Shown one piece after another: positions 43,101 to 46,100 of a stretch of DNA of 64,000 nt. The stretch is from Escherichia coli (GTDB lineage: Bacteria; Pseudomonadota; Gammaproteobacteria; Enterobacterales; Enterobacteriaceae). A program made the position numbers. The stretch lies in assembly GCF_024298765.1 (NCBI RefSeq), contig NZ_CP101210.1. One strand, 5' to 3'. Position 1 is the stretch's first letter. The number at the start of each line of letters is the position of its first letter.

Positions 43101-46100
43101 TCTCGATCTCGCCGCTGATATCGCCATGATGGCGAACTTCTTCAGCTCCGGTCAGGTGTGTACCAACGGCACCCGCGTGTTTATTCCGGCGAAATGCAAA
43201 GCCGCATTTGAACAAAAGATTCTGGCTCGCGTTGAGCGCATTCGCGCGGGCGACGTTTTCGATCCGCAAACTAACTTTGGCCCGCTGGTCAGCTTCCCGC
43301 ATCGCGATAACGTGCTGCGTTACATCGCCAAAGGCAAAGAGGAAGGCGCGCGCGTACTGTGCGGCGGCGATGTACTGAAAGGCGATGGCTTCGATAACGG
43401 CGCATGGGTTGCACCGACCGTGTTCACCGATTGCCGCGACGAAATGACCATCGTGCGCGAAGAGATCTTCGGTCCGGTGATGTCGCTTCTCACTTATGAA
43501 TCTGAGGACGAAGTGATTCGCCGCGCCAATGATACCGACTACGGCCTGGCGGCGGGCATCGTGACGGCGGACCTGAACCGCGCGCATCGCGTCATTCATC
43601 AGCTGGAAGCGGGTATTTGCTGGATCAACACCTGGGGCGAATCCCCTGCAGAGATGCCCGTTGGCGGCTACAAACACTCCGGCATTGGTCGCGAGAACGG
43701 CGTGATGACGCTCCAGAGTTACACCCAGGTGAAGTCCATCCAGGTTGAGATGGCTAAATTCCAGTCCATATTCTAACCAGGAGGTTTATTTGCAATTTGA
43801 CTACATCATTATTGGTGCCGGCTCAGCTGGCAACGTTCTCGCTACCCGTCTGACTGAAGATCCGAACACAACCGTGCTGCTGCTTGAAGCAGGCGGCCCG
43901 GACTATCGCTTTGACTTCCGCACCCAGATGCCCGCCGCGCTGGCGTTCCCGTTACAGGGTAAACGCTATAACTGGGCCTATGAGACGGAACCGGAACCGT
44001 TTATGAACAACCGTCGCATGGAGTGCGGACGCGGTAAGGGGCTTGGCGGGTCATCACTGATCAACGGCATGTGTTACATCCGTGGTAACGCGCTGGATCT
44101 CGATAACTGGGCGAAAGAACCCGGTCTGGAGAACTGGAGCTACCTCGACTGTCTGCCCTACTATCGCAAGGCCGAGACTCGCGATGTGGGCGAGAACGAC
44201 TACCACGGCGGTGATGGCCCGGTGAGCGTCACCACCTCCAAACCCGGCGTCAATCCGCTGTTTGAAGCGATGATTGAAGCGGGCGTGCAGGCGGGCTACC
44301 CGCGCACGGACGATCTCAACGGCTATCAGCAGGAAGGTTTTGGCCCGATGGATCGCACCGTCACGCCGCAGGGCCGTCGCGCCAGCACCGCGCGTGGCTA
44401 TCTCGATCAGGCCAAATCGCGCCCTAACCTGACCATTCGTACTCACGCCATGACCGATCACATCATTTTTGACGGCAAACGCGCGGTGGGCGTCGAGTGG
44501 CTGGAAGGCGACAGCACCATTCCGACCCGCGCGGCGGCGAATAAAGAAGTGCTGTTATGTGCAGGCGCGATTGCTTCACCGCAGATCCTGCAACGCTCCG
44601 GCGTCGGCAACGCTGAACTGCTGGCGGAGTTTGATATTCCGCTGGTGCATGATTTACCCGGCGTCGGCGAAAATCTTCAGGATCACCTGGAGATGTATCT
44701 GCAATATGAGTGCAAAGAACCGGTTTCCCTCTACCCTGCCCTGCAGTGGTGGAATCAGCCGAAAATCGGTGCGGAGTGGCTGTTTGGCGGCACCGGCGTT
44801 GGTGCCAGCAACCACTTTGAAGCAGGCGGATTTATTCGCAGCCGTGAGGAATTTGCGTGGCCGAATATTCAGTACCATTTCCTGCCAGTGGCGATTAACT
44901 ATAACGGCTCGAACGCAGTGAAAGAGCACGGCTTCCAGTGCCACGTCGGATCGATGCGCTCGCCAAGCCGTGGGCATGTGCGGATTAAATCCCGCGACCC
45001 GCACCAGCATCCGGCGATTCTGTTTAACTACATGTCGCACGAGCAGGACTGGCAGGAGTTCCGCGACGCAATTCGCATCACCCGGGAGATCATGCATCAA
45101 CCGGCGCTGGATCAGTATCGTGGCCGCGAAATCAGCCCCGGCGCGGAATGTCAGACGGATGAGCAGCTCGATGAGTTCGTGCGTAACCACGCCGAAACCG
45201 CGTTTCATCCGTGCGGTACCTGCAAAATGGGTTATGACGAGATGGCAGTGGTTGACGCCGAAGGCCGCGTACACAGGCTGGAAGGCCTGCGCGTGGTGGA
45301 TGCGTCAATTATGCCGCAAATTATCACCGGCAATTTGAACGCTACGACGATTATGATTGGCGAGAAAATGGCGGATATGATTCGCGGGCAAGAAGCGTTG
45401 CCGAGGAGCACGGCAAGATATTTTGTGGCAAATGGGATGCCGGTGAGAGCGAAAAAAATGAGTCGTGATGTGAACTAACTCAGGAACCTATCAGATTGAG
45501 AGTTACCGTTCTACTATGAGGACCGAATCCTTATATAAAACACTGAGGTAACTCTCATGCTTCATATCCGCAGTCCCGCCATCAAACTTTAAGCCGATTC
45601 GCTCAATCTGGCGGATGATGGTGCTATGGATACGCTGATAAACCACAAGTGTAATGCCACTCAGCTTAAGAATCACGCAACCAGTGCTCCTGGCTAGGGT
45701 TACTTGTTCTTTCCCACTCCCGGTTAGCAGTGGTCAGCGATCAACTGCGTAAGCCGGGCGTATTTATCCCAAAGCGTGGAGTAATATCAGGTCTACGCTA
45801 AAAAAGTCAATTTATTCGGTTATCATGCACGAAAAGGGGACTTGTGGCGAGTATAAAAATAAGTCAGACCCAAAAACTACGTGGAGCTTTAAACACGGTT
45901 CGTATAATTTATTAGCAGCGATTTATTTTTACCCTTCTTTAATCAGTCATCATGATTAAATATTTTTTATCACAAGATTATCGCTTCTCTAACATTTTAT
46001 TTTTTATTTATTATCAATTGATAAGAAAAAATTGTTAGTACGTTTTTGCAAAAAATTAAAAGTGTTGGAATACACTTAAACAAATGAACAAAAACCAAAC

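Follow-up and report, generated by a model that had tools for sequence, protein, structure and literature searches.

About 3-4% of E. coli genes start with TTG (10.1101/063800). UUG starts are established to yield an N-terminal methionine, as restated in the same work, and codons of the GUG/UUG class give 10-100% of the AUG output in reporter assays (10.1101/063800). In general, Shine-Dalgarno sequences tend to be stronger or better conserved in front of UUG and GUG starts (Belinky et al. 2017, PMC5622118), and the pattern described here for betA, the choline dehydrogenase gene, fits this association. The closest parallel whose function has been demonstrated is the GTG of lacI, a non-ATG start conserved across Enterobacteriaceae (PMC11445065). 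The TTG start of betA is already known, as it is found in the reference annotation, and is an ordinary bacterial non-ATG start. A literature search yielded no relevant explicit statement on a TTG or UUG start of betA. Mildly new is only the comparison between species, with TTG and an invariant maximal Shine-Dalgarno sequence in one clade, and ATG and a weaker sequence in its relatives.

The bet locus and the start of betA

The DNA analysed, hereafter the window, is a stretch of 64,000 nucleotides from E. coli (contig NZ_CP101210.1). The bet genes are found in the standard genomic context, betI-betB-betA with a divergent betT. The choline transporter gene betT (39541..41574, minus strand) is an ORF of 677 aa with an ATG start, and has the position and length of K-12 b0314 and of betT in strain N3. 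On the plus strand, the repressor gene betI (41703..42290) has an ATG start and encodes 195 aa; its 588 nt are those of the K-12 and N3 annotations. The betaine aldehyde dehydrogenase gene betB (42304..43776, plus strand) similarly starts with ATG, encodes 490 aa and ends at the TAA located at 43774-43776. betA (43790..45478, plus strand) encodes 562 aa followed by the stop TAA at 45476-45478.

BetA matches the NCBIfam betA equivalog TIGR01810 with 1024.8 bits (cut-off 732.1), residues 4-537 corresponding to profile positions 1-532. Two Pfam domains are recognized, GMC_oxred_N (PF00732, 213.4 bits, residues 3-300) and GMC_oxred_C (PF05199, 140.7 bits, residues 393-524), and the GxGxxG FAD-binding motif is the GAGSAG at residues 9-14. 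The nucleotide identity of about 95% to K-12 betA suggests that the protein oxidizes choline to betaine aldehyde.

The betB-betA junction reads, on the plus strand, ATATTC TAA CC AGGAGG TTTAT TTG CAA TTT GAC TAC ATC ATT ATT GGT GCC GGC TCA GCT GGC. The TTG (43790-43792, plus strand) is the start of betA, as in the annotations of K-12 b0311 and strain N3. The AGGAGG tract spans 43779-43784, the match to the tail of 16S rRNA reaches the T at 43785, and the spacer TTTAT covers 43785-43789. The Shine-Dalgarno sequence AGGAGGT (43779-43785, plus strand) is found 2 nt past the betB stop and 4-5 nt 5' of the TTG, and its spacing is functional. A preliminary description of this DNA had betA opening at TTG 43790 with AGGAGG 5 nt upstream, and had noticed that no in-frame ATG occurs between the end of betB and this codon. 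Coordinates and description are correct, and the 13-nt gap is devoid of any ATG. The mRNA around the junction (43750-43830) folds with an unremarkable energy (-14.5 kcal/mol, z = +0.48), and no structural element is therefore proposed at the betA ribosome-binding site.

The two intercistronic gaps of betIBA have the same length, exactly 13 nt. The first (42291-42303, CCGAGGAAACGTG) precedes the betB ATG, the second (43777-43789, CCAGGAGGTTTAT) the betA TTG, and in each the Shine-Dalgarno sequence begins 2-3 nt past the upstream stop. This arrangement suggests that translation of the operon is coupled from gene to gene.

The composite motif AGGAGGTNNNNTTG occurs in 2 copies in the window, where 0.07 would be expected by chance. 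The second copy (9998-10011, plus strand) is a chance match, as it lies antisense in prpE (8817-10703, minus strand) and is not followed by a convincing ORF. The AGGAGG tract is itself under-represented in the window. Seven copies were counted on both strands, compared with 15.8 +/- 4.4 in shuffled sequences, 99 out of 100 shuffles having at least 7. The low count is consistent with the known avoidance of Shine-Dalgarno-like sequences inside genes.

Other in-frame codons could in principle serve as start. In frame downstream of the TTG, no GTG occurs before 43874 and no ATG before 43928 (codon 47), positions that lie past the FAD-binding motif. A downstream start is ruled out by the location of this ATG beyond the motif, and by family profiles beginning at residues 3-4. 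Position 1 of PF00732 aligns to BetA residue 3, that of TIGR01810 to residue 4, and the protein therefore has to start no more than two or three residues away from the TTG. Upstream, the betA frame is closed by a TGA at 43730, and between this stop and the betA TTG the sole canonical start is the TTG at 43745, which lies in betB. Translation from this codon would make BetA 15 residues longer. Although TTG 43745 is the first canonical start met past the in-frame stop, the window sequence has no Shine-Dalgarno upstream of it, and the family profiles leave no space for an N-terminal extension. Taken with the comparisons reported in the following sections, initiation at 43745 is very improbable, and TTG 43790 is the preferred start.

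The TTG codon in E. coli genomes

In E. coli K-12 MG1655 (NC_000913.3), the first codon of the RefSeq betA CDS (b0311, NP_414845.1; 325577..327247, minus strand) is the same TTG. K-12 and the window share the operon order, the junction TAA CC AGGAGGT TTAT TTG CAATTTGACTAC and the annotated TTG. They differ in the CDS, which has about 95% nucleotide identity, and in the length of a run of A residues near its 3' end. In strain N3, betA is annotated by PGAP at the same TTG, and the junction is identical to that of the window.

The run near the betA 3' end consists of seven A residues in the window (45452..45458, plus strand), and of six in K-12. The A6 form shifts the stop by putting a TGA in frame, and K-12 BetA, which ends with RAKK, is 556 aa long instead of 562. 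Of the 5179 bet-positive E. coli genomes, 3965 have A6, and strain N3 has A7 like the window. A direct query with the A7 form gave no match, most likely owing to the low-complexity filter of BLAST, given that N3 carries A7, and the A6 count is therefore the one to be used. The difference is a homopolymer-length polymorphism altering the C-terminus of BetA.

The start codon was surveyed by megablast in 5426 complete E. coli genomes. An exact 28-mer is needed for a match, and any hit of a 36-nt query is consequently exact over the central 20 nt (43783-43802). The native TTG 36-mer matched 5183 records in 5179 of the 5426 genomes, 5180 records being fully identical to it, and this set is exactly the one matched by a 201-nt junction query. 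In every E. coli genome listed, the gene annotated under the junction match is betB. Replacing the TTG by ATG or GTG in the 36-mer gave no matches among the same 5426 genomes. TTG is therefore the fixed state among E. coli genomes with the betB-betA junction. A sequencing error as source of the TTG is ruled out by the same counts, as all 5179 junction-bearing genomes have the TTG 36-mer and none has ATG or GTG.

The junction has no match in the remaining 247 of the 5426 complete genomes, which presumably lack the bet locus. Ten of the junction matches in the E. coli collection sit on plasmids.

Two readings of the TTG had been offered in the preliminary description, either that betA uses a TTG start in this strain, or that a change from ATG to TTG had lowered its translation initiation. 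The comparison with K-12 and other strains that it had called for, now run, returned TTG in K-12, in N3 and in all 5179 junction-bearing genomes. The first reading stands as far as the TTG start is concerned, and falls as a property of the strain, because K-12 and 5179 E. coli genomes are alike. The second is refuted by the survey, in which ATG and GTG 36-mers match no E. coli genome. A recent point mutation would be in keeping with the lower strength of UUG relative to AUG in reporters, where the GUG/UUG class ranges from 10 to 100% (bioRxiv 10.1101/063800), and more distant orthologues do carry ATG at the homologous codon. TTG is however the state of K-12 and of all the E. coli genomes with the junction, and is found also in 33 species of other genera among the best 80 of 396 loci. 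There is practically no chance that the codon arose by recent mutation in the strain.

Start codons and Shine-Dalgarno sequences in related species

Scanning one genome per species identified 396 bet loci, and the best 80 of these 396 were examined by reading the codon that directly precedes the aligned Q/E-F-D-Y (QFDY/EFDY) of BetA. The homologous codon is TTG in 33 of the best 80 of 396 loci, and ATG in 44. TTG species include Pseudocitrobacter, many Enterobacter, Huaxiibacter, Lelliottia, Leclercia, the Klebsiella oxytoca group, Raoultella, Citrobacter amalonaticus and Citrobacter sedlakii. ATG is found in Pantoea, Erwinia, Kosakonia, Cedecea, Tatumella, Rosenbergiella, Mangrovibacter, Trabulsiella, Pluralibacter and one Pseudomonas. 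In three Pseudomonas loci, again among the best 80 of 396, an ATG start is found 2 codons further upstream.

As 44 species carry ATG precisely at the homologous codon, the betA start is fixed there without recourse to annotation, which speaks against a start at 43745. Adding the window to the 33 TTG species gives a set of 34 TTG-clade sequences, in 24 of which a TTG is found in the same place as that at 43745. Its conservation in these is explained by the location of the codon in the betB coding sequence. The codon is missing in the other 10, corresponding to the Klebsiella/Raoultella group and three Citrobacter sequences. In 10 of the 34 sequences, no other in-frame ATG, GTG or TTG is found between the preceding stop and the TTG start, which eliminates TTG 43745 as a conserved alternative.

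In a neighbour-joining protein tree, TTG-initiated betA genes fall in essentially one group of core Enterobacteriaceae, and the outgroups all have ATG. Trabulsiella and Pluralibacter, both featuring ATG, are close to the TTG group. The simplest reading of the tree would be that ATG is ancestral, and that TTG arose once, with few later switches. The change from ATG to TTG is apparently an ancient one, made early in the history of the bet operon of core Enterobacteriaceae, and goes with a maximal GGAGGU Shine-Dalgarno sequence.

No Escherichia locus is present among the best 80 of 396 loci of the species-representative collection. The closest BetA in this set is that of Pseudocitrobacter vendiensis (2498-4171 of locus L003), with 98% amino-acid identity and a junction identical to that of E. 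coli. Its divergence from the window at four-fold degenerate sites is 22%, compared with 42% for Enterobacter. Either horizontal transfer of the bet locus or true relatedness could account for the closeness. Enterobacter sp. BIGb0383 (L046) has a TTG betA and an Enterobacter-like junction, but is placed beside Mangrovibacter in the tree, apart from the other TTG genes. The gene may be mosaic or recombinant, or its position may be a tree artefact.

The Shine-Dalgarno core GGAGGU is invariant in all 34 TTG orthologues, and its duplex with the 16S tail ACCUCCUUA has a predicted energy of -11.0 kcal/mol. In 47 ATG orthologues the mean duplex energy is -7.9 kcal/mol (median -8.4), most sequences being UGAGGAG or UGAGGAA; this contrast between TTG and ATG genes rests on very few independent evolutionary events. 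Four-fold degenerate sites vary far more in the same 34 TTG genes, with just 7 of 196 (3.6%) being invariant and pairwise divergences from the window at these sites of up to 0.42-0.51. The T in first position of the start codon is kept throughout the TTG clade, despite the fact that a single change would give a better start, which suggests purifying selection. The conserved pair formed by a weak codon and a strong Shine-Dalgarno sequence likewise suggests maintenance by selection.

The TTG could be the true start and yet a neutral frozen accident, the identity of the codon being irrelevant to output because of coupling and of the strong Shine-Dalgarno sequence. The 13-nt gap, and a Shine-Dalgarno sequence coming straight after the betB stop, favour coupling, and start codons are in general under weak selection (PMC5622118). 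Trabulsiella has an ATG start preceded by a similarly strong CGGAGGU, and the ATG state is therefore viable in a strong Shine-Dalgarno context; with Pluralibacter, which has ATG in a related context, it indicates that both states are viable. On the other hand, the T does not vary among 34 species, although 96% of their four-fold sites do and pairwise divergence at these sites rises to 51%, and the T is invariant also across 5179 E. coli genomes. Were ATG generally favoured, a neutral site would moreover be expected to switch more often. Neutrality of the codon is a real possibility to which we give about one chance in three.

Initiation at betA and comparison with known cases

Evidence on ribosomes comes from INRI-seq, in which a synthetic pool covering every K-12 initiation region, from -30 to +150, is translated in vitro and initiating ribosomes are stalled by retapamulin (PMC9825163). 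A peak is identified at betA (b0311, start 327247, strand -1; peak identified TRUE in Table S2, PMC9825163) in 5/5 replicates, with values of 104.8, 89.4, 84.6, 69.7 and 91.3 CPM, peaks being accepted at 12-18 nt from the annotated start. The betA template (Table S6, PMC9825163) has the CCAGGAGGTTTATTTGCAATTTGAC junction, identical to that of the window, and betA is absent from the alternative sites in Table S3 of the same study. TTG 43745 falls outside a template starting at -30, and the peak was obtained nevertheless. The INRI-seq result shows that the betA site works also in the absence of upstream translation. The peak is higher at betA, with about 88 CPM, than at betB, with 43 (PMC9825163), which does not suggest weak initiation, even if peak height is not a rate. 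Ribosome stalling at the site is an in vitro result taken from the literature; position, identity, fixation and conservation of the start were read in the genomes analysed here.

The in vivo Ribo-RET value at betA, reported in Table S2 of the INRI-seq study, is 0 (PMC9825163). The operon was presumably uninduced under the conditions used. Induction of the bet operon needs choline, oxygen and high osmolarity. No betA entry providing an N-terminal peptide was found in the portion searched of one N-terminomics supplement (TRAINSPOTTER).

TTG 43790 is almost certainly the genuine wild-type initiation codon of betA, and the same confidence extends to the explanation proposed here as a whole. A 30S subunit that has just bound the mRNA, or has just come off betB 13 nt upstream, would pair with AGGAGGU. 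The pairing would set fMet-tRNA on the UUG, and BetA would begin with Met-Gln-Phe-Asp-Tyr. Re-initiation at betA by ribosomes terminating on betB is plausible given the 13-nt gap. UUG is a canonical but weaker bacterial start, and the very strong Shine-Dalgarno sequence would offset part of the weakness. The combination of TTG and strong Shine-Dalgarno sequence would have a single origin in the ancestral bet operon of the core Enterobacteriaceae, where it would have replaced an ATG preceded by a weaker UGAGGA-type sequence, and would have been kept since.

We infer that the weak codon may be kept to set the output of BetA, for example relative to BetB. BetB, which is encoded first, removes betaine aldehyde. 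This intermediate is described as toxic (PMC4427200), and control of the dosage of BetA relative to BetB is one reasonable idea. A literature search for rates of synthesis of BetA and BetB gave only a table of kinetic constants. In a stronger form, the pair made of UUG and maximal Shine-Dalgarno sequence would be actively selected across core Enterobacteriaceae, and would cap BetA relative to BetB so that production of betaine aldehyde never outruns its removal. This form is rather unlikely. Were it true, editing TTG to ATG would measurably cut fitness on choline under osmotic stress; no experiment on the fitness effect of the betA start codon was found in the literature search.

For heterologous expression of betA, or for fusions, the native start to be considered is TTG, and the protein begins with methionine. 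The gene also provides a clean, small and testable case of co-evolution of start codon and Shine-Dalgarno sequence, in an operon with a toxic intermediate.

betA has in common with the class of UUG-initiated genes a near-cognate start read by fMet-tRNA, and an above-average Shine-Dalgarno sequence (PMC5622118; Hecht et al. 10.1101/063800). It is a typical member of the class, with nothing unusual. The comparison with lacI is partial. lacI encodes a regulator, and the effect of its codon on fitness has been shown by experiment (PMC11445065), whereas betA encodes an enzyme, whose output the start codon may serve to tune. In both, a non-ATG start is conserved across Enterobacteriaceae, and gene dosage is plausibly important.
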